From Anaerolineales bacterium (GTDB lineage Bacteria > Chloroflexota > Anaerolineae > Anaerolineales > E44-bin32), in the NCBI GenBank assembly GCA_036397095.1, contig DASWJQ010000039.1, positions 1,422-65,421 of the forward strand: a DNA stretch of 64,000 nucleotides, read 5' to 3'. Numbering within the stretch: the stretch's first letter is position 1; each line of letters opens with the position of its first letter. Below the pieces are notes generated by a model, which was not told the origin of the DNA, did no database searches, and saw only the letters and a list, made by a program, of their open reading frames with translations. Positions 41,988 to 62,654 of this stretch are shown in pieces. The translations under genes were made by a program, and so were the position numbers.

Positions 41988-41999
41988 GGAGGAGTACGG

Positions 42000-44264: not shown

Positions 44265-44289
44265 ATCCCGCCGGCAAGACCGAACAAGT

Positions 44290-44324
44290 CTGCTGGCCGG
44301 AAGGCTCGGCCTTCCGGCCAGCAG
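44290..44324 (+). terminator. Intra-operon hairpin after the binding-protein gene
   Basis: CTGCTGGCCGGAAGGC-TCG-GCCTTCCGGCCAGCAG forms a 16-bp perfect stem, followed by GTTTCACC (weak T tract). Confidence 0.5.
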
Positions 44325-44358
44325 GTTTCACCAATCATCTTGGCGTGAGGTGCACGGC

Positions 44359-46849: not shown

Positions 46850-46860
46850 ATCCTTGGCCA

Positions 46861-47697
46861 ATGGACGCCGCCCGCAACTACGCCCCAAACGTCAGCTGGC
46901 TTTTCCCCGAGCTGCCCTTCGCCGAGCGCCTGGCCTCGGTGAGTGCCTTGGGCTTTCGGGCGATCGAATTCGGTTTCCCAAGTCAGGCTGATATCGAGGC
47001 GCTGGCAGCCGCCCAGCGGCACGACGGGTTGACCATCGTGCTCTTCAACCAGGATGTGCCGGTGTGGGATGGGGCCAACCGCGGCTACCTGGTCGACCCG
47101 GCCCGCCGCCATGAATTCGATCGCCAGCTCGACCGCGCCCTGGATATCGCCGAGCGGCTGCACGTTGCCAAGATCATGCTGCCGGCTGGCGTTCGCCTAC
47201 CGGCGCTTGCTCGGCAAGCCCAGGTCGATTGCCTGCTCGCCAATCTGGCCCTTGCCGCGCCGCGGGCCGCTTCGGCCGGCGTGCTGCTTACCTTGGAAAT
47301 GCTCAACCCGGCCGATAACCCGGGCTATTTTCTGGACAGCACCAGCGAAACACTCGATCTGGTCAAGCAAGTTAATCATCCCAACATCCGATTTCAATTT
47401 GACAGCTACCATGTCCAGCGAATGGAAGGCGACCCAGTCGAGCGGCTGGCGGGCATCGGCCCCTGGTTGGGCCACGTGCAGTTCGCCGATGAGCCGGGAC
47501 GACACGAGCCGGGCACTGGCAAAATCGATTTCAACCGCCTGACCAGATGGCTGGCCGATGAGGGCTACCACGATTGGATCGGGCTTGAGTACGTACCCCA
47601 ACAACCCGGGGCGGCCGCGCTGGCCTGGTGCTTGCCGGCCACCCCGGCCTCCGACCCCACCAACATCCAAGCAAACGCCACAAGGAGGCAAGAATGA
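46861..47697 (+). CDS. Hydroxypyruvate isomerase family TIM-barrel enzyme (Hyi/OtnI-like)
   Basis: Collinear with E. coli Hyi: N.SWLF.E..F..R...A...GF...EF.FP, LEMLN, IRFQFDSYHVQRMEGD, HVQFAD.PGRHEPGTG.IDF and WIGLEY.P. Confidence 0.8.
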   Translation: MDAARNYAPNVSWLFPELPFAERLASVSALGFRAIEFGFPSQADIEALAAAQRHDGLTIVLFNQDVPVWDGANRGYLVDPARRHEFDRQLDRALDIAERLHVAKIMLPAGVRLPALARQAQVDCLLANLALAAPRAASAGVLLTLEMLNPADNPGYFLDSTSETLDLVKQVNHPNIRFQFDSYHVQRMEGDPVERLAGIGPWLGHVQFADEPGRHEPGTGKIDFNRLTRWLADEGYHDWIGLEYVPQQPGAAALAWCLPATPASDPTNIQANATRRQE

Positions 47698-48518
47698 GTC
47701 CGCTGTACAAGGCGCCGTCAGAGCACGGCCACCACACTGTGTTTAAGCCTGGCCAGGACGGCATCGAGTGGCTTGGCCTTGATATGCTCCGTCTGAAAGC
47801 CGGCGAGAGATGGCAAGGTTCCTTCGGCCAGGTCGAGACTGCTTTCGTGATCCTGGGCGGCCGCTGCCATCTCACCCTGGCCGGCCCCCAGCCCAATACA
47901 TGGCACAACTTGGGCGGCCGGGCCGACGTCTTTAGCGGCGCCGGCACCACCGTCTACCTGCCGCCTAAGGCCGAGATCGAGGTCGAGGCCGTCAGCGGGC
48001 TGGAAGTTGCGCTGGCCAGCTCACCGTGCGACGTAGAACTGCCGCCAGTTGTGATCGGACCAGATGACGTCAAAGTGATCTCGGCTGGCGCCTCGAACTG
48101 GCGCCGCGACGTTCGGCTGATGATTCCGCCGGGCTCCCCCATCAGCCAGCGCATGATCGTCGGCGAAACGCTCAACCCGCCAGGCAATTGGTCGGGCGTG
48201 CCGCCGCACAAGCACGACCTGAACTCCGACATTGAGAACTTCCTCGAGGAGTTCTACCTGTTCAAGGCCAGGCCGGGCGACGGCTACGGGGTCCAACTGA
48301 TGTACCACGATGACCAGGGCGAAGGCCTGCTGGTTGGCGACAACAGGGTCAGCGTTATGCTCAAGGGCTACCACCCGACGGTGGCCGCCCCCGGCGTTAC
48401 CCTGTGCTACCTGTGGGTGCTGGCCGGCGAGGTGAAGGACTACGACATCACGATCGATCCGCGCTTCGGCTGGGTCGCCCAGACCGAATCCGTGCTGCGC
48501 GAGAACCGCAACGGCTAG
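47694..48518 (+). CDS. iolB: IolB family isomerase (5-deoxy-glucuronate isomerase-like)
   Basis: GNWSGVPPHKHD, FLEEFYLF and GYHPTVAAPG match B. subtilis IolB (GNWSSYPPHKHD, FLEETYYH, GYHPV). AAGGAGG RBS. ATGA overlap with the upstream gene. Confidence 0.75.
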   Translation: MSPLYKAPSEHGHHTVFKPGQDGIEWLGLDMLRLKAGERWQGSFGQVETAFVILGGRCHLTLAGPQPNTWHNLGGRADVFSGAGTTVYLPPKAEIEVEAVSGLEVALASSPCDVELPPVVIGPDDVKVISAGASNWRRDVRLMIPPGSPISQRMIVGETLNPPGNWSGVPPHKHDLNSDIENFLEEFYLFKARPGDGYGVQLMYHDDQGEGLLVGDNRVSVMLKGYHPTVAAPGVTLCYLWVLAGEVKDYDITIDPRFGWVAQTESVLRENRNG

Positions 48519-48527
48519 GGCGGGACG

Positions 48528-49427
48528 ATGGCCAAGACCTTTCAACCCCGCGGCATCATCCCGGCGATGGTCACGCCGCTGACCAGCGACGACACGATCG
48601 ACGTCGCCGGCCTGACCGCCCTGACCCGCCACCTGATCGAAGGCGGCTGTCATGGCTTGTTCAGCGTCGGCAGCCAAGGGGAGTTCTGGGCGTTGACGGC
48701 CGAGGAAAAACAGCTGACCTGGGAAACGGTCGTGGCCGAGACCAACGGCCAGATCCCGGTGTACGCCGGCAGCAACGCCGTCACCACTCGCGAAGCGGTC
48801 GTCCTGACGCAGCTGGCCGAGCGCTGCGGCGTAGACGCCGTGTCGGTGCTCACACCGTTTTTCATATCACCGACCGATGATCAACTGTTCGCCCATTACC
48901 GGGCGATTGCTGACGCCAGTTCCCTGCCGGTCGTCCTGTACGCCAACCCGGCCCGCACGGCCGTCAAGCTGTCCGTCGATCTGGTCGCCCGGCTGGCCGA
49001 AGTGCCGGGGATCGTCGGCATTAAGGACTCGAGCGGCGATTTGGGCCTGACCGCCGCCTACATCGGTGCCGTTCCCGCCACCTTTTCCGTCTTGATGGGC
49101 AACGACGCACTGATCCTGGCCAGTCTGATTTACGGCACCAAGGGCGCCATCGCCGCCACCGCCAACGTCGTGCCGGACATGGTGGTGGCCATCTACGACC
49201 TGTTCTTGCAGGGAGACATTGGCGGGGCCCGCCAGGCGCAGGACCGGCTGGCAGCGCTGCGGCGGGCCTTCACCTGGGGCACCTTCCCCGTGGTTATCAA
49301 AGAAGCACTGGACTTGATCGGGCTGCCGGCCGGACCGGCGCGGGCCCCGGTCGGTCCCCTTACCGACGACCAACGCCAGCGGCTGCGCCAGCTGCTGGTC
49401 AGCCTGGATCAGGCTGTTGTCGCCTGA
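48528..49427 (+). CDS. DapA/NAL family lyase (dihydrodipicolinate synthase-like; probable 2-keto-3-deoxy-acid aldolase or dehydratase)
   Basis: GIIPAMVTPL....ID...L..L...LI..G.HGLF..GS.GEF, and the GIKDSSGD Schiff-base lysine motif. Confidence 0.8.
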   Translation: MAKTFQPRGIIPAMVTPLTSDDTIDVAGLTALTRHLIEGGCHGLFSVGSQGEFWALTAEEKQLTWETVVAETNGQIPVYAGSNAVTTREAVVLTQLAERCGVDAVSVLTPFFISPTDDQLFAHYRAIADASSLPVVLYANPARTAVKLSVDLVARLAEVPGIVGIKDSSGDLGLTAAYIGAVPATFSVLMGNDALILASLIYGTKGAIAATANVVPDMVVAIYDLFLQGDIGGARQAQDRLAALRRAFTWGTFPVVIKEALDLIGLPAGPARAPVGPLTDDQRQRLRQLLVSLDQAVVA

Positions 49428-49460
49428 CCGGCCTGTGACATAAGGGAGACGATTGCGCTC

Positions 49461-50507
49461 ATGAAGATGAAGGCCGTTCGCAAAACCAGGGCAGAGCCGG
49501 GGCTGGACCTGGTTGAGATCGAGGTCCCTCGGATCCAGCCGGACGAAGTGCTGGTCAAGGTCGAAGCCACTGCCATCTGTGGCACCGATGTCCACTTTTA
49601 CAACTGGGACGCATTTGCCCAGTCCAAGCTCAAGCCGCCAATCACACTCGGCCACGAATTCGCCGGGGAAATTGTCGAAGTTGGTGCGCAGGTCGCCGGG
49701 TACCAGCTTGGCGACTACGTGGCGGCCGATAGCCACATTGTCGACAGCGTTTGCGCCATGTGCCGGATGGGACTACAGCACATCTGCCAAAACCTGAAGA
49801 TCTTCGGCAACGAGGTCGACGGCAGCTTTGCCGAGTACGTCGCCGTCCCCGAAACCTCGCTCTGGCGCCTGTCACGCGACGTCCCGTCGGAGATCGGCGC
49901 CATTATGGAACCGCTGGGTGGCGCTGTGCAGGCCGTATTGATTGAACCGGTGACGGCCCAGAACGTGGTCATCTTTGGCGATGGGCCCATCGGCTTGTTC
50001 GCCGTCGGTGTGGCCAAGGCGGCCGGCGCCCGCAGTGTCACCATGGTCGGCGTCATTGAAACCCGCCTCGAGATCGCCAAGCAGATGGGCGCAGACCGTG
50101 TCTTCAACAACCGGGAGGGGGAGGTTGATCCGGTCGAGGCCATTATGCAGGCAACCGGCGGCCTCGGCGCCGATGTGGTCATCGAGATGTCGGGGGCGCC
50201 CCAGGCGTTCCGGCAGGCCTTCGATACCGTGCGCAAAGGGGGGCGTGTCAGCCTGTTTGGCATTTCATCCGATCCGATGACATTCGACTTCAACTACACC
50301 GTAATCCTGCGCCAGGTGCGCGTCTTTGGTGTGGCCGGCCGCCACATGTGGGACACCTGGTTCATGATGGACGGTTTGCTGGCCTCGGGCAAGCTCGATC
50401 CGAGGCCGGTCATCACCTGCGAACTCAAGCTCGAGGACTTCGACAAGGGATTTGAGCAGATGGTTTCGAAGGAGTGCGGCAAGGTCATTCTGCGGCCGTT
50501 TGCCTAG
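49461..50507 (+). CDS. Zn-dependent MDR dehydrogenase (threonine/sorbitol dehydrogenase-like)
   Basis: ICGTDVHFYNWD......PPITLGHEFAGEIVEVG closely resembles the L-threonine 3-dehydrogenase signature. Structural zinc Cys cluster (CAMCRMGLQHIC) and GDGPIG Rossmann motif. Confidence 0.75.
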   Translation: MKMKAVRKTRAEPGLDLVEIEVPRIQPDEVLVKVEATAICGTDVHFYNWDAFAQSKLKPPITLGHEFAGEIVEVGAQVAGYQLGDYVAADSHIVDSVCAMCRMGLQHICQNLKIFGNEVDGSFAEYVAVPETSLWRLSRDVPSEIGAIMEPLGGAVQAVLIEPVTAQNVVIFGDGPIGLFAVGVAKAAGARSVTMVGVIETRLEIAKQMGADRVFNNREGEVDPVEAIMQATGGLGADVVIEMSGAPQAFRQAFDTVRKGGRVSLFGISSDPMTFDFNYTVILRQVRVFGVAGRHMWDTWFMMDGLLASGKLDPRPVITCELKLEDFDKGFEQMVSKECGKVILRPFA

Positions 50508-50537
50508 GCCGGAAGACGCAGTCACAAGGAGCGTGCA

Positions 50538-51683
50538 ATGGAGACCGACGGAAAGATCAACTACGACGACATCCAGATTGTGGGCGACGGCCGCGGCACG
50601 ATGCAGGGCGACTACCTGCTCAACAAGGACCGTCCGATGGACCGCACCCGCTGGCTGCTCGAGTGCTTCCCCGAATGGGGCCGCTACCTGAACCGCCAAA
50701 TCGAGGAAACGGTCGTCGAGAAGGGCACCTACGCCATGTGGTGGACCGGCGGTATGGGCTTCGTGCTCAAGTCGCCCGGCGGCGCAGTGCTGCTGGTCGA
50801 CAACTACGCCGGTCCGGCTCACTACACCGAGTACGAGTACTGCGGCGTGTGCCGCACCTCGGGCTCGCCAACGATCGACTGGCTGCGGCTCAACCCGCAA
50901 GTGATCGACATCTTCGGCTTCGAAACGCTGGACGCTGTGTTCTGCAGCCACCAGCACGCCGACCACACCGACATCTACACGCTGAAGGCCGCCACCCAGA
51001 CGACCGAGGCCCAGTTTTATGCCCCCTTGTCGTCGGTCGAGCGCATGCGCAATTTCAAGGTGCCGGAAGATCGCATTACTGTCGTGCGGCCCGGCCAGTC
51101 GTACAAGATCAAGGACGTCGAAGTCCAGATCCTGCCCAATTACGACCGTATCGCCACCATGACCGGCGGCCCCGGCGTCGAGGTTCAACCGGGCGTGCGC
51201 CGGCCCTACGACGACGTCGCCGTCACCTTCTTTTTCAAGTTCCCCGGCGGCGTCAATCTGTGCCACCTGGCCGACACCCTGTTCCAGAACGCCTACGTTA
51301 CCTTCAAGCAGTACGACGTCGACGTAATTACATTCAATATCGGTTCGAATGCCCCCGGCGCCACCGACAAGATGACCCCCTGGGACTCGGTGCGGGTGGC
51401 CGAAGCCATCGGCGCCAAGGTGCTTATGCCGATGCACTGGGACAACTGGGGCAACACCTACATCGATCCGGCGACCGTTCCGATGGTCGCTGACAAGATC
51501 TTGCCGCAGGCCAAGGTGGTGATTCCGGCCTGGGGCGTAAAGTGGGTCTACCCGGCCCAGGCCGGCATCGGCCGCATGCGCTGGCCCGACTGGCGCGAGC
51601 GCTACCGGCCCGAGCACTCGTGGGAGTATGGCCAGCCGGCGCAAGAGGCGGCCGACGCCCGCGGCGAGTTCATCCCGTACTAG
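50538..51683 (+). CDS. UlaG-like metallo-beta-lactamase-fold lactonase
   Basis: Collinear with E. coli UlaG. WLLECFPEWGRYLNRQIEE..VEKGTYAMWWTGGMGFVLKSPGG aligns with [42 protein letters not shown]. It also has the HQHADH metal motif and ATDKMTPWDSVRVAEAIGAKVLMPMHWD. Confidence 0.75.
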   Translation: METDGKINYDDIQIVGDGRGTMQGDYLLNKDRPMDRTRWLLECFPEWGRYLNRQIEETVVEKGTYAMWWTGGMGFVLKSPGGAVLLVDNYAGPAHYTEYEYCGVCRTSGSPTIDWLRLNPQVIDIFGFETLDAVFCSHQHADHTDIYTLKAATQTTEAQFYAPLSSVERMRNFKVPEDRITVVRPGQSYKIKDVEVQILPNYDRIATMTGGPGVEVQPGVRRPYDDVAVTFFFKFPGGVNLCHLADTLFQNAYVTFKQYDVDVITFNIGSNAPGATDKMTPWDSVRVAEAIGAKVLMPMHWDNWGNTYIDPATVPMVADKILPQAKVVIPAWGVKWVYPAQAGIGRMRWPDWRERYRPEHSWEYGQPAQEAADARGEFIPY

Positions 51684-51714
51684 CCATGATGTCCAACGGA
51701 TTGAGGTTCAACCC

Positions 51715-52626
51715 GTGCCCGCGTTGACAAAAGTCGGATTCATCGGCCTGGGCCTGATGGGCGCGCCGATGGCGGCCAACATCGCCCGCGCCGGCTACCC
51801 GCTGACGGTCTACAACCGGTCGGCGGACAAGGCCAAGCCACTTTTGGCGCTGGGGGCTTCGCTGGCGGACACACCGGCGGCGCTCGCCGCCGCCAGCAAT
51901 GTCGTCATCAGCATGTTGGCCGATGCCGCCGCCGTCCACCAGGTTGCCTTCGGCGCCGGTGGTCTGACCAGCATCCCCGGCGGCTGCCTGACCGACATGA
52001 GCACGATTGCCCCCGACCAATCTCAGGAGCACGCCCGCCGTTTGGCAGAACACGGGTGGTCGATGATCGACGCCCCCGTCATCGGCAGCACAGGCCCGGC
52101 CGAGGCCGGCACCCTGGGCATCCTGTCCGGCGGCGAGCTTGACCTGGTCGAACAACACCGGGATCTGCTTGAAACCCTGGGCGCGCTCCACTACCTGGGC
52201 GCCCAGGGCGCCGGCGCGCTGGCCAAGATGTGCTTCAACTTGATGGTGGCCGCCCAGGTTGGCTCGCTGGCCGAAGCCATGTTCTTAGGGGCCGCCGGTG
52301 GACTGGACATTGGCCAACTGGCCGACATCATCAGCGGCAGTGGCATCGCCTCCAGTTTGATCCAGCGCAAAGCGGCCAATATGGTCGCCGGCGACTTCCC
52401 GCCGGCTTTCCCGCTCAACCATATGCAGAAGGACCTGGGCTTAATGATCCGCACTTCGGACCGGCTCGGTGCCTTCCTGCCGGGCACAGCCAGTTATCAC
52501 CAGCTTTACAGCGCCGCCCGCGGCAAGGGAATGGGTGACCTCGACTTCTCGGCGGTCTACCGTTTCTTGGTCGGGGCCGTCAGCAACGGCCAGCCGGCGG
52601 CATCATCGGACTTACGAGGAGACTAG
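51715..52626 (+). CDS. HIBADH-family NAD(P)-dependent dehydrogenase (tartronate-semialdehyde reductase / L-threonate dehydrogenase-like)
   Basis: KVGFIGLGLMGAPMAANIARAG Rossmann motif, DAPV.GS, and the length and pattern of 3-hydroxyisobutyrate dehydrogenase relatives. GTG 51715 has GAGG 8 nt upstream. Confidence 0.75.
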   Translation: MPALTKVGFIGLGLMGAPMAANIARAGYPLTVYNRSADKAKPLLALGASLADTPAALAAASNVVISMLADAAAVHQVAFGAGGLTSIPGGCLTDMSTIAPDQSQEHARRLAEHGWSMIDAPVIGSTGPAEAGTLGILSGGELDLVEQHRDLLETLGALHYLGAQGAGALAKMCFNLMVAAQVGSLAEAMFLGAAGGLDIGQLADIISGSGIASSLIQRKAANMVAGDFPPAFPLNHMQKDLGLMIRTSDRLGAFLPGTASYHQLYSAARGKGMGDLDFSAVYRFLVGAVSNGQPAASSDLRGD

Positions 52627-52629
52627 GCA

Positions 52630-53511
52630 ATGGCATCAACCAAGCAAGAAGTCCTTTACTTCGCACCCGCCAGCCTGGAAGCGGCCCTCGAACTATTGGA
52701 CCAGCACGCTGGCAAACTAAACGTGCTGGCGGGCGGCACCGACCTGGTGCGGGATATGAACCTCAAGTTCAAGGTCCCGCCTGGCTTCATGTGGATCGGC
52801 AAGATCGGGCTGGAGTACGTCGAACGCCAGAACGGTCATCTGCGGGTTGGGGCCGCCACCCGCATGCAGACCGCCGGCAGTTCCGAAGTGCTGCGCCAGC
52901 AGGGCGCCGCCGTCGCCCGGGCCGCCGGCAAGCTGGCCAGTCCGCCAGTGCGTTCGCTGGCCACCCTGGGCGGCAATCTGGTCAACGCCTCTCCGGGCGC
53001 CGACACCGCCTGCGCCTTGCTCGGATTGGGCGCCGAGGTCGTGCTCACATCCAAGGGCGGCAGCCGGACGGTTCTGCTCGAGGCGTTCTTCACCGGCCCC
53101 GGCGAGACGGTCATCAAGCCCAACGAGCTGATGACCGAGATCGTGTTCAAGCCAACCGGCAAGGGGCAGGGCTCGGCCTACGCCAAGGTCGGGCGCCGTC
53201 AGGCGATGACGCTGGCGGTGCTCAACGCCGCCGCTCGCGTCGAGCTTGATGGCGATGGAAAATGCAGCGATGTTCGCATCGCCGTCGGCGCTGCCGCGCC
53301 GACCCCGCTGCGGGCGGTCGAAGCCGAAACGCTGCTGCGCGGCCAGCCCTGGACGGAAGAGGCCATTGAGGCCGCCGCCGCCAAGGCCGCCGAAGAGATC
53401 AAACCGATCGATGATGTACACGGCACCGCCTGGTACCGGCGTAAGTTGGCCCGCGTTTTGGTCGGGCGCACCTTGCGCGAGGCCGGCGAGATCGCCCAAG
53501 GAGCGAGGTAG
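52630..53511 (+). CDS. Molybdenum hydroxylase FAD-binding subunit (CoxM/XdhB/NdhF-like)
   Basis: 293 aa: ...LAGGTDL..., the ATLGGNL motif and a C-terminal CO-dehydrogenase flavoprotein domain (PIDDVHGTAWYRR). Confidence 0.85.
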   Translation: MASTKQEVLYFAPASLEAALELLDQHAGKLNVLAGGTDLVRDMNLKFKVPPGFMWIGKIGLEYVERQNGHLRVGAATRMQTAGSSEVLRQQGAAVARAAGKLASPPVRSLATLGGNLVNASPGADTACALLGLGAEVVLTSKGGSRTVLLEAFFTGPGETVIKPNELMTEIVFKPTGKGQGSAYAKVGRRQAMTLAVLNAAARVELDGDGKCSDVRIAVGAAAPTPLRAVEAETLLRGQPWTEEAIEAAAAKAAEEIKPIDDVHGTAWYRRKLARVLVGRTLREAGEIAQGAR

Positions 53512-53517
53512 ACACCG

Positions 53518-53988
53518 ATGGACTACCCGATCAAGTTCACCCTTAACAGCGCCGAAGTCGAAGTGGAAGCGCCGGCCACCATCAACTTGCTGCGCTTGCT
53601 GCGCGACTACCTCGATGTCACCGGCCCCAAGTTTGGTTGCGAGCAAGGCAACTGCGGCGCCTGTACCGTGCATATTGACGGCGAAGCCGCCAACGCCTGC
53701 CTGGTTCACGGCCTGACAATCGACGGGCGTGAAGTGACCACTGTTGAGGGGCTGGGAACGATGGAGGCGCCCGATCCACTGCAGCTGGCTTTCTACGAGC
53801 ATTACGGCGCCCAGTGCGGCTTCTGCACGCCGGGCATGCTGATGGCCTCCAAGGCCCTGCTCGACCATAACCCCCACCCCACGCGCGACGACGTGGTTGA
53901 AGCCATCGTCGGCAACGTCTGCCGCTGCACCGGCTACAACAAGATCATCGAATCGGTGCTAGCAGCGGCCGACGCGGCGCGCGAATAG
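53518..53988 (+). CDS. Molybdenum hydroxylase [2Fe-2S] subunit (CoxS/NdhS-like)
   Basis: GCEQGNCGACTV and CGFCTPG...C.CTGY cysteine clusters. 156 aa. Confidence 0.9.
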   Translation: MDYPIKFTLNSAEVEVEAPATINLLRLLRDYLDVTGPKFGCEQGNCGACTVHIDGEAANACLVHGLTIDGREVTTVEGLGTMEAPDPLQLAFYEHYGAQCGFCTPGMLMASKALLDHNPHPTRDDVVEAIVGNVCRCTGYNKIIESVLAAADAARE

Positions 53989-54005
53989 GCCGAGGGAGGA
54001 CAACC

Positions 54006-55316
54006 ATGACCGAACACAAGTATGTAGGCCAGCGGCTGCCGCGCTACGACGGCATGCAGCATGTCACCGGCAAGACCCAGTTCGTCGGCGACATGCGGAT
54101 GCACGGCATGCTCTACGTCAAAGCCTGGCGATCCCCGGTGGCCTCGGCCACCATTAGCCGGATCGATGTCAGCCAGGCGAAGGCACTTCCCGGTGTGGTC
54201 GCCGTCATCACCCATGAGCAAGTGCCCAATAACCGCTACGGCTTTGCCGGCGACTTTCCGGTCCTGGCCGACACGGAAATCCGCTACAAGGGTCAGGAAG
54301 TGGCGGCCGTTGCCGCCGAGACCGAGGAGATCGCCCGCCAAGCCGTCGAACTGATCAAGGTCGACTACAAGGAACGGCCGGCCGTCCTCGATCCGTTCGA
54401 GGCCATGCGGCCCGATTCGGCCAAGGTCAGCCCAACGGGCAACTTCGTGATGTTCGACGGCAAGCCCTACCGGCCGGTGATCCGCGGCGATGTCGAGGCC
54501 GCCTTCGCACAGGCTGATCACATCATCGAAGGCTACTTCCGTACCGCCGCCCAAGAACATTGCCCGATCGAAACGCAAACCAGCGTGGTCCAAACCGACT
54601 CGATGGGCCGCACCCACATCCATACCGTCACCCAGGCGGTGTTCTTCAACCAGGGTACGCTGGCATCCATCCTGAAGAAGCCGCAATCCATGGTTCATAT
54701 GCTGGGCGGCATCGTCGGGGGCGGTTTCGGCGCCAAGAACGACCCTCACACCGATCACATCTGCGCCGTCCTGTCGCTCTACACCAACGGGCGGCCGGTG
54801 CGTTGGATCTGGACGCGCGAGGAAGAGTTCGTGGCCTCCACCCAACGCGGCGCCACCCACATGTTCTTCAAAGATGCAGTCACCAACGACGGGCACATCA
54901 TTGGCCGCCAGGTGCGCAGTGTGCGCGACGGCGGGGCTTATGTGTTGACCAACGACTATGTGGCGGCCAAGCACGCCTTCGCCGTCTCGGGCCCGTACAA
55001 CATCCCCAATATCCGGACGCACGCCTATGCCGTCCTGACCAATCGGCGGCCAACCAGTTCGATGCGCGGCTTTGGCATCTACCAGGCCTCGATTGGCCAT
55101 GAACTGCAGATCGAGCACATCGCCAAGCAACTGGGGATGGACTCGTGGCGCATCCGGTTCCTCAACGCCGTCCATGACGGCGATCTGTCCGCGACGCAGG
55201 CCGTGCTCAAAAACTGCGGGCTGATCGAATCGCTGCAGCAGACGGCCGAGCGGGCCGGTGTGAAGCTTGACGACGAGTTTCTACAACTGTCGTCGAAAGC
55301 AGTCAGGGAGGCATAA
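54006..55316 (+). CDS. Molybdopterin-binding subunit, N-terminal half (NdhL-like)
   Basis: 436 aa: an a/b-hammerhead region (VTGKTQFVGDM...GMLY.K..RSP.A.A.I..ID.S.A..LPGV) and the first MoCo-binding segment. Ends with TAA directly abutting the next ATG. Confidence 0.8.
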   Translation: MTEHKYVGQRLPRYDGMQHVTGKTQFVGDMRMHGMLYVKAWRSPVASATISRIDVSQAKALPGVVAVITHEQVPNNRYGFAGDFPVLADTEIRYKGQEVAAVAAETEEIARQAVELIKVDYKERPAVLDPFEAMRPDSAKVSPTGNFVMFDGKPYRPVIRGDVEAAFAQADHIIEGYFRTAAQEHCPIETQTSVVQTDSMGRTHIHTVTQAVFFNQGTLASILKKPQSMVHMLGGIVGGGFGAKNDPHTDHICAVLSLYTNGRPVRWIWTREEEFVASTQRGATHMFFKDAVTNDGHIIGRQVRSVRDGGAYVLTNDYVAAKHAFAVSGPYNIPNIRTHAYAVLTNRRPTSSMRGFGIYQASIGHELQIEHIAKQLGMDSWRIRFLNAVHDGDLSATQAVLKNCGLIESLQQTAERAGVKLDDEFLQLSSKAVREA

Positions 55317-56378
55317 ATGGCGAAGAAACGAGGCGTAGGCATCTCCGCCGTCTGGTATCCAACCGGCATGAGCGGCGGCGGCGATCCCAGCCAGGCCATC
55401 ATCAAGATGCAGCCGGACGGCAGCGTGGATGTGTTGATTGGCACGGTCGATATCGGCCAAGGCGTGCGGACTGTCGTGCGCCAAATCGCCGCCGAGGAAC
55501 TGGGCGTGCCGATCGAGCGAGTAAGCGTGACCGTCGTCGATACGGATTCCAGCCCACTAGACACCGGTACGTTTGCCAGCCGTGCCACCCACCAGACGGG
55601 CAATGCCGTGCTGCAAGCGGCGGCCGAGGCTCGCCAGGTGCTGCTCGAGGTCGGCGCCCAACAACTGGGCGTTGAACCCGAAGCGTTGGTGCTGGAGAAT
55701 GACACGGTTGTCGTCAAGGATCACCCCGAGCAGGCCATCCCGATTCCCGACGTGGCCAGTCATGCCACTTGGGCGGAACGCCGGCTGATCGCTGGCCGGG
55801 GGGCCTTTGGCTGGGCGGTGGCCAAGGTCGACAGTGAAACCGGCCAAGGCGAACCGCTCCACACCATGGCCTACGGCGCCACCTTGGCCGAGGTCGAGGT
55901 CGACACCGAGACCGGCGAGGTCAAGGTGCTCAAGCTGGTCAGCGCTTACGACTGCGGCAAGGCGATCAACCGCTTGCTGGTCGAAGGCCAAATCGACGGG
56001 GGCGCCGCCATGGGCCTGGGGTCGGCCTTGATGGAGGAGCTACACCCCTACTACCCGTCCCTCGAGCACCACCCGACCGGATTCTTCTCGTACATGCTGC
56101 CAACGGCCAAGGACGTACCGCCACTGGAGGCCGTGATCGTCGAGATGAATTCCGACACCGGTCCCTATGGCGCCAAGGGGATCGGCGAGATGACGGCCAA
56201 TTCGCAAGCACCGGCCATCATCAACGCCATCCACGACGCTATCGGAGTCTGGATCACCGACATCCCCGCCACCTCGGAAAAGGTGCTGCGGGCGATCGAG
56301 GCCCAGGCCGGCGAAGACATCCAGCCGGGCTATGTACCACCCGAGCCGTACTGGCCGCATGAAGCCATTGCCGGCTGA
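55317..56378 (+). CDS. Molybdopterin-binding subunit, C-terminal half (NdhM-like)
   Basis: 353 aa: IGQG..T...QIAAEELG....V.V...DT, GTFASRAT, and the GAKGIGEMT.....PAI.NAIHDA active-site Glu loop. AGGGAGG RBS 5 nt upstream. Confidence 0.8.
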   Translation: MAKKRGVGISAVWYPTGMSGGGDPSQAIIKMQPDGSVDVLIGTVDIGQGVRTVVRQIAAEELGVPIERVSVTVVDTDSSPLDTGTFASRATHQTGNAVLQAAAEARQVLLEVGAQQLGVEPEALVLENDTVVVKDHPEQAIPIPDVASHATWAERRLIAGRGAFGWAVAKVDSETGQGEPLHTMAYGATLAEVEVDTETGEVKVLKLVSAYDCGKAINRLLVEGQIDGGAAMGLGSALMEELHPYYPSLEHHPTGFFSYMLPTAKDVPPLEAVIVEMNSDTGPYGAKGIGEMTANSQAPAIINAIHDAIGVWITDIPATSEKVLRAIEAQAGEDIQPGYVPPEPYWPHEAIAG

Positions 56379-56418: not shown

Positions 56419-57315
56419 ATGTCGAAGACCCCGAGGAAGCGAGCCCCCAGCGCGGACCAAGGCGAGACCTTCTGCGTCGGCTCGGTCTGTCTCCCGGTTC
56501 ACCTTGGCAACGACAGCCAGTTCATCCCGCACCCCCAGGTGTATGTCGAACCGTCCCAGGGCTACCTGGAGAAACTGGCCTACGCCGTGGAAACTAACTT
56601 GCCGGCGCTGTTGATCGGCGAGACCGGCGTCGGCAAGACGCTGGCGGTGCGCCACCTGGCGTCCAAAACCAACAACGGGCTGCGCCGGGTCAACCTGAAC
56701 GGTGCGACCACCGTCGACGAGTTCCTCGGCAAGCTGCTGATCAACGAGCAGGGCACCTACTGGGTCAATGGGGTACTCGTCGATGCCATGCTGGCGGGCG
56801 ACTGGATTCTGCTTGACGAGATCAACGCCACCCTGCCCGAGATCGCCTTCTGTCTTCACTCGCTGCTGGATGACGATCGTATGGTGGTCCTGATGGAATA
56901 CGACGGTCGGATCGTGCGGCCGCATCCCAACTTCCGCTTATTCGCCAGCATGAACCCCAGCGAGCAGGCTCGTTACGGCGGCACCAAGACGCTCAATGAG
57001 GCGTTGCTCGACCGCTTCCCGGTCGTCATTCGGATGGACTACCTGTCGGAGAACGAGGAAGTGGCCGCCGTCATCGCCCAATCCGGCCAAAAGGACGAAG
57101 GGGTGGTGCGGCGCATGGTGCGCTGTGCCAACGAGGTGCGGGCCGCCATCGGCCAAGAAAAGGTGTTCGGCTCCTTCAGCACCCGGCGAGTCACCGACTG
57201 GGCTCGGATGAGCCTGCAGTTCGATGTGCGCGAAAGCGCCGATGTGACCGTGCTCAGCAAGCTGAACCCGTTCGACGCCGAGGTGGTGGAGGACATCGTT
57301 GACAACTACTTCTGA
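56419..57315 (+). CDS. AAA_5-type ATPase (CbbQ/NorQ/CoxD-like)
   Basis: Walker A LLIGETGVGKT, Walker B WILLDEINA, and the HPNFRLFASMNP and LLDRF sensor motifs. Confidence 0.8.
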   Translation: MSKTPRKRAPSADQGETFCVGSVCLPVHLGNDSQFIPHPQVYVEPSQGYLEKLAYAVETNLPALLIGETGVGKTLAVRHLASKTNNGLRRVNLNGATTVDEFLGKLLINEQGTYWVNGVLVDAMLAGDWILLDEINATLPEIAFCLHSLLDDDRMVVLMEYDGRIVRPHPNFRLFASMNPSEQARYGGTKTLNEALLDRFPVVIRMDYLSENEEVAAVIAQSGQKDEGVVRRMVRCANEVRAAIGQEKVFGSFSTRRVTDWARMSLQFDVRESADVTVLSKLNPFDAEVVEDIVDNYF

Positions 57316-59038
57316 GCCGGCCGCCGACCCCCGGCTCGAGTCCTTGCGCCTGCGCCTCGAACGGCTGCTTCAGGTCACGGCCGGTCAATTCGACCTGCGA
57401 TTTGCCTTCGGAGACCGTGATTGGCTGGGGGTGGGCGAACTCCAGCTCAATGCCGATCCGGCCCAGGTGATTGCCCTGCCCTACGCGCACCTCAAGGGCC
57501 GGGCGCTGCATTTGTTCGGCCACTTGCGCGAAGAGAGTCATCGCTGGCTTCCCCGGGCCCAGCAGCTGGAAGCCGCCGGCCGGCCGCATTTCGCCCGCCT
57601 GTGGCACGCACTCGAAGACGCCCGGCTCGAAAACCGGTTGATCGCCCGTTGGCCGGGGATGGCCAAACACCTGGATGCCAAGATCCCGCCCAAGTTGGGC
57701 GGCAGCTTGCTCCGCCTGGCCACACCCACCCGCCAGATTGAGCTGGGCCTGTATTACCTGGGACGCGGCCTGGCCGGCGCCCAATTCAGCCGGCGAGTTG
57801 CCCGGTTGTTTGACCAGGCCGGGACCCTGATCCAGTCCGCCTGCCAAGCCGAAACGGCCGAAGCCACCGTGGCCGCCGCCGAAGCCTTGTATCCGTTGGC
57901 CGTCCCCTTCTTGCGCGGCCAAATGGCCGAATCCGATGAACTGCCCCAGAGCCATCCGCTGCCAAGTGATCCAGCGGAAGACCCGTCGGAGCCTGAAGCC
58001 GACCGCTCCCAACCAGCGCCGCTCATCGGGCTCGACAATGACTTGCTTGGGGCCGGTGATCCCGCCGATGTGCCCCAGGCTGACCGCTTTGCAGTCGGCA
58101 GCCTGCCCTGGTTCGAGCGCGGCTTGGGCGCCAAACAAGTCCACCCGAGTGTGGTGCAGAGTGACCGGCAGACGATCGTGCTGCCTCCGCCACACGATCC
58201 CGCAGCCTACCGAAGCATGCTGGCCGACGTCCAGGGCGATGCCCGCCGCCTGGCCCAACGTCTTCGCCTGGTCTACCAGGAGAGCCAGTACCTTCGTTTT
58301 GGCGGCCGCTTCCGCAGCGGCAAGCTCGACAACGCCCGCCTGTGGCGCCAGCGCAGTGGCAGCTACCGCTTGTTCCAGCGACGCCTGGAACCGCTCGACC
58401 GCCAGTGGGCGGTCAGCCTGCTGATCGATGAGAGCGCCAGCATGCGATCCGACGCCAGGTGCCGAGTGGCCGCGCTGGCCGCGGTGCTCATTGGCGAGGC
58501 GCTGGCCGAGCTCGAGATTCCATTCGAAATCATCGGCTTCAGCACCGACCAGTTCGAGGCCGAAGCCGCCCTGGGCCTTGGCCTGCGGCCGGCGCACGCC
58601 TACCGCACCACCCGCTGCAGCCGCCTCGAACACCGGCTCTACAAGAGCTACGACGAGCCATATCGCCTGGCGGCTCGCCGGCTTCCCGGCATCGAAGCCC
58701 GGCACAACAACTGGGATGAAGAACACCTGTGGTTTGCCTTCCGTCGGCTCCAAGGAAGGCGCGCCGCCCACCGCATGATGCTGGTCGTCTGCGATGGCCA
58801 GCCGAACGGTGATGCCGATCACCTGATCGCCACGGTCCGCCAGCTCGAACGGCTTGGTACGACCGTCATCGGCATCGGGATCGGCGAGGACTTCGTGCGC
58901 CGCGCTTATCGGCGCGCCATTGTCGCAACCGATATTCCTTCGCTCGCCCGGGCGCTGATGGAAATCCTGGCGCGCGAGCTAGGGCGCAGCCCGACGGCTG
59001 TTCGGGGCGCCGCTCCCGCAGGGGTCGGGCTTCCATAG
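57299..59038 (+). CDS. VWA domain protein (NorD/CbbO/CoxE-like partner of the AAA_5 ATPase)
   Basis: 579 aa. The C-terminal VWA domain has MIDAS residues (LLIDESASMRS ... VVCDGQPNGD). The N-terminal region contains the LWHALEDARLE motif seen in NorD/CobT-like proteins. TTG start with GGAGG 7 nt upstream. Confidence 0.7.
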   Translation: MTTTSEPAADPRLESLRLRLERLLQVTAGQFDLRFAFGDRDWLGVGELQLNADPAQVIALPYAHLKGRALHLFGHLREESHRWLPRAQQLEAAGRPHFARLWHALEDARLENRLIARWPGMAKHLDAKIPPKLGGSLLRLATPTRQIELGLYYLGRGLAGAQFSRRVARLFDQAGTLIQSACQAETAEATVAAAEALYPLAVPFLRGQMAESDELPQSHPLPSDPAEDPSEPEADRSQPAPLIGLDNDLLGAGDPADVPQADRFAVGSLPWFERGLGAKQVHPSVVQSDRQTIVLPPPHDPAAYRSMLADVQGDARRLAQRLRLVYQESQYLRFGGRFRSGKLDNARLWRQRSGSYRLFQRRLEPLDRQWAVSLLIDESASMRSDARCRVAALAAVLIGEALAELEIPFEIIGFSTDQFEAEAALGLGLRPAHAYRTTRCSRLEHRLYKSYDEPYRLAARRLPGIEARHNNWDEEHLWFAFRRLQGRRAAHRMMLVVCDGQPNGDADHLIATVRQLERLGTTVIGIGIGEDFVRRAYRRAIVATDIPSLARALMEILARELGRSPTAVRGAAPAGVGLP

Positions 59039-60099
59039 TGAAGTCAGTCCCAGCCGGCCAGCCGGCGCGCCAGCGGCGGGAACCCACACTAAATGCCGTT
59101 CGGGTGCCGCGGCCGGGCGTCGTCGAATTCGTGGACCTGGAGCGGCGCCCACTGGCCGAGGGCGAAGTCCGGCTGCAGGTCGAGGCGATCGGGATCTGCG
59201 GATCGGACGTGGCGCTGCTGGCCGGGCGGCATCCATACGCGGCGTATCCGGTCGTCCCCGGGCATGAGGTCGGCGGTCGCGTGCTCGAGGCCGGGCCTGG
59301 TGTGGTGCTGGAGATTGGGCAGCGGGTGGCGGTCCGACCGCTACTGACCTGCGGAATCTGCCGGGCCTGCCGCGAAGGCCGCGTGAACCACTGCGCCGAG
59401 GTTCGTGTGCTGGGGGTGCACCTGGACGGGGGCATGGCCGAAGAGTTCGTCGTCCCACAGGAGCTGCTGTTCCCGGTGCCGGAGGGGATGAGCGGAGAGT
59501 GGGCGGCGCTGGCCGAGCCCACCGCGGTGGCAGTGCACCTGTGCCATCGGGCCGGCATCGGACCGGGCAGCAGTGTCGCGATCCTGGGGACCGGCGTGAT
59601 CGGGCTGCTGGCGCTGCAGGTGGCCCGGGCCTGGGGTGCGCAGGCCGTACTGGCGGTGGATCAAGTGCCGGAGCGCCTAGAGCTTGCCATGCGGCTGGGC
59701 GCCGCCCAGGCGCTAGACAACCGGCAGGAAGACGTCCTGGACGCCGGCCGCCGATTGTGCCCGGACGGGTTTGATGTGGTCCTCGAAATGGTGGGCGCCG
59801 AGGCCACCCTGGCCAGTGCGCTGGAGCTCACCCGCCGTGGGGGCGGTATTGTGTTCGTGGCGCTGCCCCACGGGAAGATCGCACTCGATTTTGAGCCGGT
59901 CTATCGCAAGGAGCTCTCCCTGCTCGCCACGCGGCTGTATGCAGCGGATTTCGCCGAGGCGATCCCGCTGCTGGCCTCCGGACTGGTGCAGGTGGATCCG
60001 ATCATCACCCACCGCTTCGGGCTGGCCCAGGCAGCCGAGGCGCTGGCCCTGCCGGGCCAGCGCCCAAGTGAAGCCATCAAGGTCATGGTCATCCCATGA
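59038..60099 (+). CDS. Zn-dependent MDR alcohol/polyol dehydrogenase
   Basis: ICGSD....G......YP.VPGHE..G.V.E.G, the CG.C..C..G..N.C cluster and GTGVIGL Rossmann motif. The GTG start overlaps the upstream TAG. Confidence 0.75.
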   Translation: MKSVPAGQPARQRREPTLNAVRVPRPGVVEFVDLERRPLAEGEVRLQVEAIGICGSDVALLAGRHPYAAYPVVPGHEVGGRVLEAGPGVVLEIGQRVAVRPLLTCGICRACREGRVNHCAEVRVLGVHLDGGMAEEFVVPQELLFPVPEGMSGEWAALAEPTAVAVHLCHRAGIGPGSSVAILGTGVIGLLALQVARAWGAQAVLAVDQVPERLELAMRLGAAQALDNRQEDVLDAGRRLCPDGFDVVLEMVGAEATLASALELTRRGGGIVFVALPHGKIALDFEPVYRKELSLLATRLYAADFAEAIPLLASGLVQVDPIITHRFGLAQAAEALALPGQRPSEAIKVMVIP

Positions 60100-60154
60100 A
60101 TGCAATCCCAGGCCCTGAACCCAGGGCACAACCTAGTTGAGAAGGAAGAGGATC

Positions 60155-61657
60155 ATGGAAATCACCGGTGAAGTGCAGAAGATGGCGATGCTGATCGACG
60201 GGCAACCTGTCGTTGGCAACGGCGACGCGGTCGTCGAGGTGTTCAACCCTTCGACCGGCGAGTTGGTCGGCCGGGTGCCGATCGCCTCGGAGGCCGAGAT
60301 CAACCTGGCGGTCGAAGCGGCCGACCGCGCCTTCAAAACATGGCGAGACACGCCGGCTGTCGAGCGCGCTGCCCATATACGGGCGCTGATCGCCATCGTG
60401 CGTCAGAATATCGATGACCTGGCCCGTACCCTGACCATGGAACAGGGCAAGCCCTTTCCACAAGCCAAGGGCGAGATCAACGGCTTTTGCGCTGTGCTCG
60501 AGTTCTACGCCGAGGAAGCCCGCCGCATCAGCGGCATGGTGCTCGAATCGGACCAAACCGACCGCTTCGTGTACGTTCTGCGCCATCCAGTTGGCGTGAT
60601 CGCCGCCATCCCACCGTGGAATGATCCGCTCCACCTGTTGAGCCGGATGATCGGCCCGGCGCTGGCTGCCGGCTGCACCGTCGTCGCCAAACCCAGCTCC
60701 GACACGCCGCTGACCACGCTCCAGATGGCCGAACTGGCCCATAAGGCCGGTTTGCCGGCCGGTGTGTTCAACGTCATCACCGGGCCGGGCGGCCGCGTCG
60801 GTGAAGCATTGGTGCGCCATCCAAAGGTGCGCAAGGCCTCGCTGACCGGCAGCCTGGCCGGCGGCCAATCGGTCATGCAGACGGCAGCCGAGGGCATCAA
60901 GAGTGTCACGCTGGAATTGGGCGGCCAGTGCCCATGCATCGTGTGGCACGACGCCGATCTGGACAAGGCCGTCGAGGCCCTGACCTTCCAGGCGTTCCGC
61001 GGCTGTGGCCAGGTATGCAACCGCGTCAACCGTGTTTACGCCCACGCCGATATTTACGACGAGCTTGTCAACCGGGTTGCCGAGTTGGCCGGGCGCATCC
61101 ATGTCGGCGATGGCTTTGCCGACGATATCGACATTGGCCCGCTGGTCAACGAACGACAGCTCGCGTGGGTCACTGGACAGGTCGCCGACGCCCTCAATAA
61201 GGGCGCCCGGCTTTTGGCCGGCGGCCAGCGCAAGGCCGGCGACGGCTACGACAACGGCTTCTTCTTCGAGCCGACCGTGCTGGCCGACTGCAACCACCAG
61301 ATGGGTGTGATGACCGAAGAGACTTTCGGGCCGGTGCTGGCCTTCGCCAAGGTTGACGGCGAGCTGGAAGCGGTTATCGACATGGCCAACGACAGCTGGA
61401 ATGGCTTGAGCGCTTACTTCTTCAGCGCCAACCAGCGCAACTGCTATCTGGCCGCCCGGCGGCTTGAAGCCGGCTCGATCTGGATCAACGATATCCACGG
61501 CTCGATGGTGCAGGCCCCCTACGGCGGGATGAAGCTGAGCGGCATCGGCCGCGAGCAGGGCTCGATCGCCATCGACGAGTATCTGGAATGGAAGACCGTT
61601 TACCAGGAGATGAGCGAGGAGTCGCGCGGCGCCCGCTTATGCGTCCGCCCTGCCTAA
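60155..61657 (+). CDS. NAD(P)-dependent aldehyde dehydrogenase
   Basis: FNPSTGE, the IPPWN.P motif, KPSSDTPLT, LELGGQCP and a catalytic Cys context (RGCGQVCN), and EETFGPV. GAAGGAAGAGG RBS. Confidence 0.85.
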   Translation: MEITGEVQKMAMLIDGQPVVGNGDAVVEVFNPSTGELVGRVPIASEAEINLAVEAADRAFKTWRDTPAVERAAHIRALIAIVRQNIDDLARTLTMEQGKPFPQAKGEINGFCAVLEFYAEEARRISGMVLESDQTDRFVYVLRHPVGVIAAIPPWNDPLHLLSRMIGPALAAGCTVVAKPSSDTPLTTLQMAELAHKAGLPAGVFNVITGPGGRVGEALVRHPKVRKASLTGSLAGGQSVMQTAAEGIKSVTLELGGQCPCIVWHDADLDKAVEALTFQAFRGCGQVCNRVNRVYAHADIYDELVNRVAELAGRIHVGDGFADDIDIGPLVNERQLAWVTGQVADALNKGARLLAGGQRKAGDGYDNGFFFEPTVLADCNHQMGVMTEETFGPVLAFAKVDGELEAVIDMANDSWNGLSAYFFSANQRNCYLAARRLEAGSIWINDIHGSMVQAPYGGMKLSGIGREQGSIAIDEYLEWKTVYQEMSEESRGARLCVRPA

Positions 61658-61658
61658 C

Positions 61659-62618
61659 ATGAGCGATCCGTCCCGTCGGCCGGTCGTCCTGCTTTTCGAA
61701 GAAATCCACCCCAAGGCCGTCGAACGGCTGACGGCCAAGGCCGAGGTGCGCCTGGCGACCAGCCTGGCCCCGGAGGCCCTGCTCCACCAAGTGGCCGACG
61801 TCGACGGCATCATCATCCGCGCCAACGGCAAGGTCGACCGGCGCCTGATGGAGGCTGCTCCAAGGCTCAAGGTGGTGGGTCGCCATGGCACCGGCGTCGA
61901 GGCCATTGACCTGGAGGCTGCCGTCGAACGCAGCATTGCCATCGTGAACACCCCCTTGGCCAACGTCGAGTCGGTCGCCGAACACGCCCTGGGCATGATG
62001 ATCGCCCTGGCCAAACGGCTGCCCGAGGCCGACCGGGCCATCCGCGCCGGCGACTGGGACGCCCGCTACCGCTTGACCGGCCGCGAGCTGGCCGGCAAGA
62101 CGCTGGGGCTGGTCGGGATGGGCCGCATCGGCGGCCGCCTGGCCGAGCTAGCCCACGGTGCATTTGCCATGCGCCTGCTCTACCGCGATATCCAACCGTA
62201 CCCGGATTATGAGGCCCGTCTCAAAGCCGAACGAGTCGAACTTGACCAACTGCTGGTCGAATCGGATGTGGTTTCGGTCCATGTTCCGCTGCTGCCTGAG
62301 ACCCACAGCCTGATTGGCGAAGCCGAGCTGCGGTCCATGCGCTCGACTGCATTCCTGCTCAACACGGCGCGCGGCGCCGTTGTCGACAGCCAAGCGCTGC
62401 TGCAAGCGCTAACCGAGGGTTGGATTGCTGGCGCCGGCCTGGACGTATTCGAGCCAGAGCCGCTGCCGCCCGACCACCCGCTGCTGGCGCTCGAGAATGT
62501 CATCCTGTCGCCGCACATGGCGGCGCACACCGATGAGGCGCTGCTGCGCATGGCCCTGGTGGCCGACGACATCCTGGCCGTCCTCGACGGCCGTGAACCG
62601 ACCCATCGCGTCGCCTGA
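61659..62618 (+). CDS. D-isomer-specific 2-hydroxyacid dehydrogenase (SerA/GhrA-like)
   Basis: GLVGMGRIGGRLA NAD motif, LLNTARG, and the SPHMAAHT catalytic His context. Confidence 0.8.
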   Translation: MSDPSRRPVVLLFEEIHPKAVERLTAKAEVRLATSLAPEALLHQVADVDGIIIRANGKVDRRLMEAAPRLKVVGRHGTGVEAIDLEAAVERSIAIVNTPLANVESVAEHALGMMIALAKRLPEADRAIRAGDWDARYRLTGRELAGKTLGLVGMGRIGGRLAELAHGAFAMRLLYRDIQPYPDYEARLKAERVELDQLLVESDVVSVHVPLLPETHSLIGEAELRSMRSTAFLLNTARGAVVDSQALLQALTEGWIAGAGLDVFEPEPLPPDHPLLALENVILSPHMAAHTDEALLRMALVADDILAVLDGREPTHRVA

Positions 62619-62654
62619 CGGGCGGCACGTCCTTAGCTGCAAGGAGTATTCATC

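Follow-up and report, generated by a model that had tools for sequence, protein, structure and literature searches.

Nicotinate dehydrogenase (Ndh) from Eubacterium barkeri (PDB 3HRD) is a molybdenum (Mo) hydroxylase encoded by four genes in the order F, S, L, M. Its large subunit is divided into two chains, NdhL and NdhM. The enzyme acts in nicotinate fermentation, a pathway that comprises an enamidase, a 6-hydroxynicotinate reductase, a B12 mutase, a methylitaconate isomerase, a dimethylmaleate hydratase and a dimethylmalate lyase. The unsplit three-subunit hydroxylases 4-hydroxybenzoyl-CoA reductase (HcrABC, 1RM6), quinoline 2-oxidoreductase (Qor, 1T3Q), carbon monoxide dehydrogenase (CODH) and xanthine dehydrogenase (XDH; XdhABC/PucCDE) have the same domains and the same chain of molybdenum cofactor (Moco), two [2Fe-2S] clusters and FAD as the enzyme described here. 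Their large subunit is one chain of 700-800 amino acids (aa). A 64-kb stretch of DNA from an Anaerolineales bacterium (contig DASWJQ010000039.1, here called the window) harbors four tightly packed genes on the forward strand in the order F-S-L-M, with the large subunit encoded by two open reading frames (ORFs). This four-subunit architecture is considered real, and not the trace of a pseudogene, with a probability of roughly 0.8. The layout as such is already known from Ndh, widespread, and ancient in the Anaerolineae; the enzyme itself is a new uncharacterised member of the family.

The four subunits and the break in the large subunit

The FAD-binding subunit F (52630..53511, 293 aa) matches FAD_binding_5 (1.6e-39) and CO_deh_flav_C (6e-31) in Pfam and carries the motifs AGGTDL and TLGGNL. 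The [2Fe-2S] subunit S (53518..53988, 156 aa) consists of Fer2 and Fer2_2 and contains both cysteine motifs for its two clusters, CEQGNCGAC...C and CGFCTPG...CRCTGY. The N-terminal half of the Mo subunit, L (54006..55316, 436 aa), comprises Ald_Xan_dh_C (hammerhead) and MoCoBD_1. The C-terminal half, M (55317..56378, 353 aa), is formed by MoCoBD_2 (4.8e-77), so that the gene boundary between L and M is the boundary between the two Moco-binding domains. A C-terminal tail makes M about 20 aa longer than relatives of about 334 aa. The Pfam matches of the four proteins lie between 1e-28 and 5e-77 and exceed the gathering scores throughout. With the domain set of all four subunits present, the enzyme is a genuine xanthine-oxidase-family Mo hydroxylase of the Moco-[2Fe-2S]-FAD type. 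The ORFs were re-read at the coordinates and lengths given in a preliminary description of the window, and its F-S-L-M layout was recovered.

The junction between L and M (55305..55319) was read directly as ...TC AGGGAGG CATAA ATG GCG. AGGGAGG occupies 55305-55311, TAA 55314-55316 and ATG 55317-55319. In codons, L ends with GAG GCA TAA and M begins with ATG GCG, both in one reading frame (54006 and 55317 are 0 mod 3). The in-frame TAA|ATG junction with a ribosome-binding site 5 nt upstream of the ATG is therefore real, as had been described.

Related loci were obtained by a scan of one genome per species. This yielded 29 loci, 25 of them from metagenome-assembled genomes (MAGs) of Anaerolineae or Chloroflexota. 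In these 25 loci, the four subunits have separate, adjacent coding regions as far as the contigs extend, with full-length protein matches of 61-67% (F), 66-78% (S), 63-70% (L) and 76-85% identity (M). The conservation of L and M across the Anaerolineae indicates that both halves are under purifying selection. The junction was compared in the 23 Anaerolineae loci that contain it, and a stop codon, GGAGG and ATG occur in all 23. Eight of the loci share with the window a stop (TAA; TAG in L001) that is directly followed by the ATG in the same frame. In the remaining loci, the stop of L lies 9-24 nt upstream of the ATG, or L ends in a different frame. As spacing and frame vary among the relatives, the in-frame abutment in the window is incidental and has no special meaning.

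A search with M returned 4831 relatives, of which the best 120 clusters at 90% identity were examined. Identity of these proteins to M is 76-100%, their length is 326-365 aa, and MoCoBD_2 is their sole domain. The named clusters originate from Anaerolineales or Chloroflexi MAGs. The preliminary description had taken an uninterrupted gene in close relatives as the mark of a mutation or error; neither the best 120 M clusters nor the 23 junctions contained such a fused L-M gene. Fused versions were recovered in the locus scan only from distant organisms, namely a deltaproteobacterium (L026), a betaproteobacterium (L028) and a cyanobacterium (L029), at 40-45% identity. The conserved junctions show the split to be old in the Anaerolineae lineage.

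The occurrence of stop, Shine-Dalgarno (SD) sequence and ATG in 23 of 23 independent Anaerolineae loci, in several spacings and frames, effectively excludes a nonsense mutation or a sequencing or assembly error within a gene of about 790 codons. A pseudogene or artefact of this kind would fit the shared frame and direct abutment of L and M and the existence of fused homologues at 40-47% identity (L026, L028, L029, P0123, P0128). It fits neither the uniform length of the best 120 M clusters nor the conservation of both halves, and a crystallised enzyme (3HRD) has the same split. That the relatives are mis-assemblies of one template is implausible at 76-85% identity, and the chance of such an error in the window is close to negligible. 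Scarcely greater is the chance of a programmed read-through of the TAA, which would yield a fused L-M product in addition to L and M. The abutting in-frame junctions of the window and eight relatives would allow it, but the longer spacers and different frames elsewhere show that this is no conserved feature. A strong SD sequence precedes the ATG at every locus, and the Ndh crystal structure contains separate chains.

The conserved stop, SD sequence and ATG predict two separate polypeptides, L and M. In the proposed course of events, the large-subunit gene would have been split long ago at a variable surface linker between MoCoBD_1 and MoCoBD_2. M would be translated separately from its own ATG, and read-through would be unnecessary. 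Since the GGAGG of M lies inside the last codons of L, translational coupling of the two genes is probable. L and M together would then form the Moco-binding catalytic unit.

The break point was compared with that of Ndh by searching L and M each against all PDB sequences, which gave about 40 relatives. The best match of L is NdhL (3hrd_A, 5.8e-67), aligned over residues 4-417 of L and 5-415 of the 425 residues of NdhL. The best match of M is NdhM (3hrd_B, 3.7e-70), over residues 3-330 of M and 2-328 of 330. These end-to-end matches, together with the N-termini MAKKRGVG of M and (M)KKRGKG of NdhM, place the break point, by alignment, within one residue of that in E. barkeri. The alignment had been proposed as a check in the preliminary description, and it bears out both the shared position and the similarity in size (436 and 353 aa here, 425 and 330 aa in Ndh). 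Ndh had also been named there as the only well-known enzyme with this split. For the PDB this holds, 3HRD being the sole split entry among the relatives, all others of which are unsplit chains of 706-1338 aa. Among protein sequences in general, however, the split turned out to be far commoner than assumed.

With HMMER, 1.84 billion representatives at 50% identity were searched exhaustively, and the best 150 of the 2231 matches at E <= 1e-30 were classed. Of these, 41 are M-only proteins and 71 are fused large subunits of full length; 37 have partial N-terminal extensions, most of them being fragments, and one match was too short to be assigned. All complete M-only proteins begin at the same (K/R)(K/R)RGxG motif, which in fused proteins comes after a variable hydrophilic linker. 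A neighbour-joining (NJ) tree of the M domains places the window among split forms. NdhM is found elsewhere, in a region where split and fused forms are mixed, its nearest neighbours including the split P0187 and the fused P0179, and fused forms fall between M of the window and NdhM. Parsimony counted 16-21 changes between split and fused in the NJ tree and 30 bootstrap replicates, a rough count on a tree that is noisy at about 40% identity. The split is a common state, easily gained or lost at a linker that permits it. As split and fused forms are interleaved, the shared break point is no evidence of orthology with Ndh, and as the split recurs in the family, it says nothing on a shared substrate.

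Other split clades (P0122, P0125, P0126) keep the F-S-L-M order in unrelated contexts, namely beside an iron-type alcohol dehydrogenase with a branched-chain-type ABC transporter, beside an isochorismatase, and beside a metallo-beta-lactamase (MBL) protein with a thiamine pyrophosphate enzyme. The nearest split and fused clusters bear generic names, and literature searches on split large subunits gave nothing usable. Two further variants were observed. P0175 (646 aa), a possible F-M fusion, appears to have an N-terminus similar to the FAD subunit (MREFEYVAPKS...AGGTDVL) joined directly to an M-type MoCoBD_2. About eight homologues of 384-402 aa (P0222, P0190, P0174, P0137, P0234, P0256, P0258, P0218) start 51-68 residues before the KKRG motif, at a conserved helix 'M(D)xIAexLGxDP'. 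Either the gene is split at a second point in these cases, or gene calling placed the start at an internal Met.

Active site and family membership

The loop GAKGIGEMT was found in M, intact as described before, with the catalytic Glu as residue 291. Its counterpart in the bovine enzyme is Glu1261, and in Ndh it is Glu289M. Further residues of the Mo site are present in L, where Gln210 corresponds to Gln208L of Ndh, and the loop SMRGFG (352-357) takes the place of AFRGFG, with Arg354 and Phe356 matching Arg351L and Phe353L. In analogy to other members of the family, these three residues of L would line the Mo site. A substrate would be hydroxylated at the Mo with water as the source of oxygen and Glu291(M) as base, and electrons would pass from the Mo via the two [2Fe-2S] clusters to the FAD. 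Other positions differ from Ndh. Asn245 in the L motif GGGFGAKN is aligned to Leu243L, and Met18 and Ser19 of M replace Asn17M and Thr18M. Tyr14 of M corresponds to Tyr13M. This match is not specific, a Tyr being found here in many fused homologues too. Tyr13M has been modelled as binding the pyridine ring nitrogen of nicotinate (PMC5746545).

The residues that discriminate between the enzyme classes had been suggested as a check, and the signatures of XDH and CODH are both absent. By a motif alignment, Asn245 presumably sits where XDH has Glu802 (GGGFGGKE, bovine numbering). A Phe likewise presumably occupies the position of Arg880 in XDH and of a His in Ndh. The active-site loop of CODH is AYRCSF with a copper-binding Cys (PMC8305194); this Cys loop does not occur in L, where SMRGFG stands in its place.

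Family assignment was based on the scores of NCBIfam equivalog models relative to the model cut-offs, and no equivalog was reached by any of the subunits, all scores being far below the cut-offs. XdhA scored 262.7 (L) and 247.1 (M) against 780, PucD 292.8 and 178.3 against 783.65, and CoxL 180.5 and 143.3 against 991. For 4-hydroxybenzoyl-CoA reductase, the values were 256.9 (L) and 229.8 (M) against 994.55 for the alpha subunit, 90.5 against 404.55 for beta and 166.8 against 257.8 for gamma. The glyceraldehyde dehydrogenase models (NF041018-20) gave 210.1 (L) and 169.6 (M) against 790 for alpha, 180.7 against 350 for beta and 154.4 against 290 for gamma. HcrA is the second-best PDB match for both L and M, but the [4Fe-4S] loop inserted in HcrB is missing from F, which has two Cys residues only. 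The enzyme belongs to an uncharacterised clade and is an orthologue neither of Ndh nor of XDH or CODH.

That the enzyme is nevertheless a CO or xanthine dehydrogenase is very unlikely. The generic JGI name 'CO/xanthine dehydrogenase Mo-binding subunit' and the partial matches to the XdhA, PucD and CoxL models would be in line with it, yet these scores are far under the cut-offs, the SMRGFG loop has no copper-binding Cys, and the motif alignment puts Asn and Phe in place of the XDH pair Glu802 and Arg880. Moreover, no xdhC gene and no coxD-, coxE-, coxF- or coxG-type gene was found in the 64-kb window. Genes of this clade, now labelled 'CO/xanthine dehydrogenase' or 'hypothetical', should not be read in Chloroflexota MAGs as CO oxidation, purine catabolism or pseudogenes.

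A true Ndh that hydroxylates nicotinate at C6, orthologous to NdhFSLM of E. barkeri, is a somewhat less remote alternative but still improbable. Gene order and break point are shared, 3HRD is the top PDB match for both halves, and the equivalents of Tyr13M, Glu289M, Gln208L and Arg351L/Phe353L (PMC5746545) are kept. Identity is just 34.5% between L and NdhL and 40.2% between M and NdhM, however, and aligned motif positions of the active site are changed (L243 to N245, N17M to M18, T18M to S19). In the NJ tree, M of the window and NdhM belong to different groups with fused forms between them.

The gene context also differs. Among the proteins compared, the M-type protein closest to NdhM is P0187, whose gene belongs to a complete cluster for nicotinate fermentation. 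This cluster encodes an enamidase-like amidohydrolase, an Fe-S protein, a HIBADH-family protein and F-S-L-M, together with aconitase-family subunits, PrpF, MutL, a B12-binding mutase and a protein of the PEP-mutase/ICL family. The nicotinate-fermentation genes of this cluster were found neither in the window nor in 25 related loci, and the transporter in the window is of the sugar type. Genes for SelD, YqeB and YqeC, which would indicate selenium as a terminal Mo ligand, are likewise absent from the 64-kb window. Given the sugar-acid context and the presence of a true Ndh-like homologue in a nicotinate cluster, nicotinate is an unlikely substrate.

A HIBADH-family gene lies 5' of F, as hgd does in the nicotinate cluster, and was considered as a remnant of an hgd-ndhFSLM module. 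This idea was rejected. The nearest relatives of the protein are reductases of the glyoxylate/succinic-semialdehyde type, Hgd (3cky) is just the tenth PDB match, and the identity to the Hgd homologue of the nicotinate cluster is 35%. A HIBADH gene adjoins F upstream both in the window (51628-52626, + strand) and in L036 (6360-7256), a shared adjacency that looks coincidental.

Operon context and candidate substrate

The four genes are part of a run of forward-strand genes that lie 0-40 nt apart. It begins with a GntR/FCD regulator at 40492 and reaches 63572 or beyond. Scans of the run revealed no internal promoter or terminator signal above background, and neither a Moco riboswitch nor any other Rfam element was found near the operon. 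The only Rfam matches in the window are two tRNA genes, at 3420-3492 (+) and 34332-34405 (-). GC content is uniform at about 64% and thus does not point to a recent island.

The head of the cluster (40492..46849) comprises the regulator, an SDR similar to gluconate-5-dehydrogenase and KduD, and a sugar-type ABC transporter with Peripla_BP_4, a double ABC ATPase and two permeases. It is followed by a TIM-barrel protein similar to hydroxypyruvate isomerase or 2-oxo-tetronate isomerase (46777-47697), an IolB/KduI-like protein (47628-48518), a DHDPS-family protein (48528-49427), a zinc-type alcohol dehydrogenase similar to Tdh and IolM (49461-50507), an UlaG-like MBL protein (50538-51683) and the HIBADH-family dehydrogenase, which resembles tartronate-semialdehyde and L-threonate dehydrogenases (51628-52626, start uncertain). 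Downstream of F-S-L-M and of the AAA+/VWA gene pair described below, a second zinc-type alcohol dehydrogenase (59038-60099), an NAD(P)-type aldehyde dehydrogenase (60137-61657), a D-2-hydroxyacid dehydrogenase similar to glyoxylate/hydroxypyruvate reductases (61659-62618) and a further TIM barrel (62655-63572) are encoded, all on the forward strand.

Both the upstream (46777..52626) and the downstream neighbours (59038..63572) are syntenic in Anaerolineae loci. The gene order of the window is kept in about 17 related loci (layout 1), in which the ABC and permease genes are syntenic as well. A second layout, TIM-IolB-MBL-(HIBADH)-F-S-L-M...AAA-VWA, occurs in six loci (L011, L012, L014, L016, L017, L018). 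In L012, L014 and L018, about 1.5-2.5 kb separate M from the AAA+ gene. As assigned by eye, the stretch of L014 encodes a further TIM barrel and a protein with a Gfo/Idh/MocA-like N-terminus. By the same means, a Gfo/Idh/MocA-like ORF and several ORFs resembling TIM barrels of the xylose-isomerase type were noticed around F-S-L-M in the second layout (L014, 11026-13177 and 2547-5133; L012; L018). The pathway they suggest resembles those for inositol or rare sugars. Of all neighbours, the UlaG-like lactonase is the most constant and the best conserved, with 75-83% identity. The preliminary description had called the context sugar-acid-like; the neighbours are indeed sugar and sugar-acid enzymes with a sugar transporter, syntenic in the relatives, and the enzyme clade is fixed within a sugar or sugar-acid catabolic operon in the Anaerolineae. 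Literature searches on Mo hydroxylases in sugar-acid clusters and on links to UlaG, ascorbate or threonate gave nothing usable.

A Mo hydroxylase of sugar catabolism is known in the archaeal glyceraldehyde oxidoreductase (Sulfolobus CutABC type; a relative of PDB 4ZOH), which occurs beside a DHDPS-family aldolase. The enzyme described here gives partial matches to all three models of that type. The archaeal large subunit is unsplit, however, and the archaeal enzyme is not the closest relative by sequence. By analogy, the enzyme may oxidise an aldehyde intermediate of the pathway to the acid, e.g. glyceraldehyde, a uronate-type aldehyde or a semialdehyde. This assignment is tentative and is put at somewhat less than an even chance. 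It is favoured by the polar and hydrophobic residues at two positions that are charged in XDH, by the DHDPS-family aldolase/dehydratase and the many enzymes of C3/C4 acid sugars in the cluster, and by the precedent of the KDG-aldolase/glyceraldehyde oxidoreductase pairing in Sulfolobus.

A somewhat less likely alternative is the C-H hydroxylation of a ring, with a sugar-derived O- or N-heterocycle or enol-lactone as substrate, or the reverse dehydroxylation as in 4-hydroxybenzoyl-CoA reductase. The nearest characterised relatives (Ndh, HcrA, Qor) are ring hydroxylases or dehydroxylases, the equivalent of the ring-binding Tyr13M is kept in Tyr14, and the constancy of the UlaG-like lactonase as well as the separate NAD(P)-type aldehyde dehydrogenase would suit a ring or lactone. 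Such a role is opposed by a cluster that contains neither a CoA ligase nor genes of an aromatic pathway and by an F subunit that does not have the HcrB-type insertion, and the literature searches gave no known pathway for sugar-derived heterocycles with this gene set.

The AAA+/VWA gene pair

M is followed by an AAA+ ATPase of the CobS/CbbQ/NorQ (MoxR) type (56419..57315, AAA_5 and CbbQ_C) and by a CobT/NorD-like VWA protein (57299..59038, CobT_C, 5e-19), both on the forward strand. The best PDB matches of the AAA+ protein are CobS (3e-23), CbbQ (5e-22) and NorQ (4e-21), and the VWA protein matches CobT (1e-20). The two genes overlap by 17 nt and are conserved together. An alternative start of the AAA+ gene at 56332 would lengthen the ORF by 87 nt (56332-56418) and would overlap the 3' end of M by 47 nt. 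With scores of 81.5 against a CobS cut-off of 558.55 and 79.4 against a CobT cut-off of 759.05, the pair is related to CobS/CobT without being a member of the cobaltochelatase. It is not of the CoxD/CoxE type either, as VWA_CoxE was not matched and AAA_3 gave only a weak secondary match in Pfam.

Pairs of a MoxR-class AAA+ protein and a VWA protein beside a presumed client enzyme are likewise known in CoxD/CoxE, NorQ/NorD, CbbQ/CbbO and CobS/CobT, CoxD/CoxE being the maturation pair of CODH. By sequence, CobS/CobT, CbbQ and NorQ are the nearest to the pair in the window, rather than CoxD/CoxE. It is located 3' of M in every Anaerolineae locus with downstream sequence (among L001-L027), and its own downstream neighbour differs between the two layouts. 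When homologues of the AAA+ protein were searched for, all matches were close orthologues from Anaerolineae, with 75-100% identity. The distant fused loci examined lack the pair, and no AAA+/VWA genes occur in the Ndh-like loci examined.

The analogy with CoxD/CoxE and NorQ/NorD makes it a reasonable hypothesis that the pair may act as a maturation or assembly factor of the Mo enzyme. The more specific proposal is a carbohydrate-pathway Mo hydroxylase whose assembly or active-site maturation would require its own CobS/CobT- or NorQ/NorD-like pair, in place of CoxD/E/F or a chaperone of the XdhC type; as a whole, it is rather unlikely. If true, a new type of maturation system would be added to the xanthine oxidase family, and such an enzyme would have a new role in bacterial sugar or sugar-acid catabolism. 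The conserved sugar-acid context and the pair provide a lead to a possible bacterial Mo enzyme of carbohydrate catabolism and to its maturation.

Several points weigh against the reading as a split, aldehyde-oxidising Mo enzyme served by the AAA+/VWA pair. The separate L and M polypeptides are a prediction from the genes. At about 40% identity between the proteins, the NJ tree is noisy, and both a single and a multiple origin of the split are compatible with it. The aldehyde substrate is a guess from gene context. Aldehyde oxidation in the pathway could be covered by the NAD(P)-type aldehyde dehydrogenase, and Tyr14, matching the ring-binding Tyr13M, would also suit a heterocyclic substrate. 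The split clades P0122, P0125 and P0126 have no AAA+/VWA pair. Split enzymes therefore do not generally need the pair, which may serve a different gene of the cluster.

Two observations concern other parts of the window. A UPF0236-family ORF, which we take to be transposase-like, lies at the window edge (435-1682, +). On the reverse strand, a single ORF of 1037 aa (29179-32292) combines a serine hydroxymethyltransferase domain (SHMT, residues 87-425) with an aminomethyltransferase domain (GCV_T, 641-908) and looks like a GlyA-GcvT fusion.

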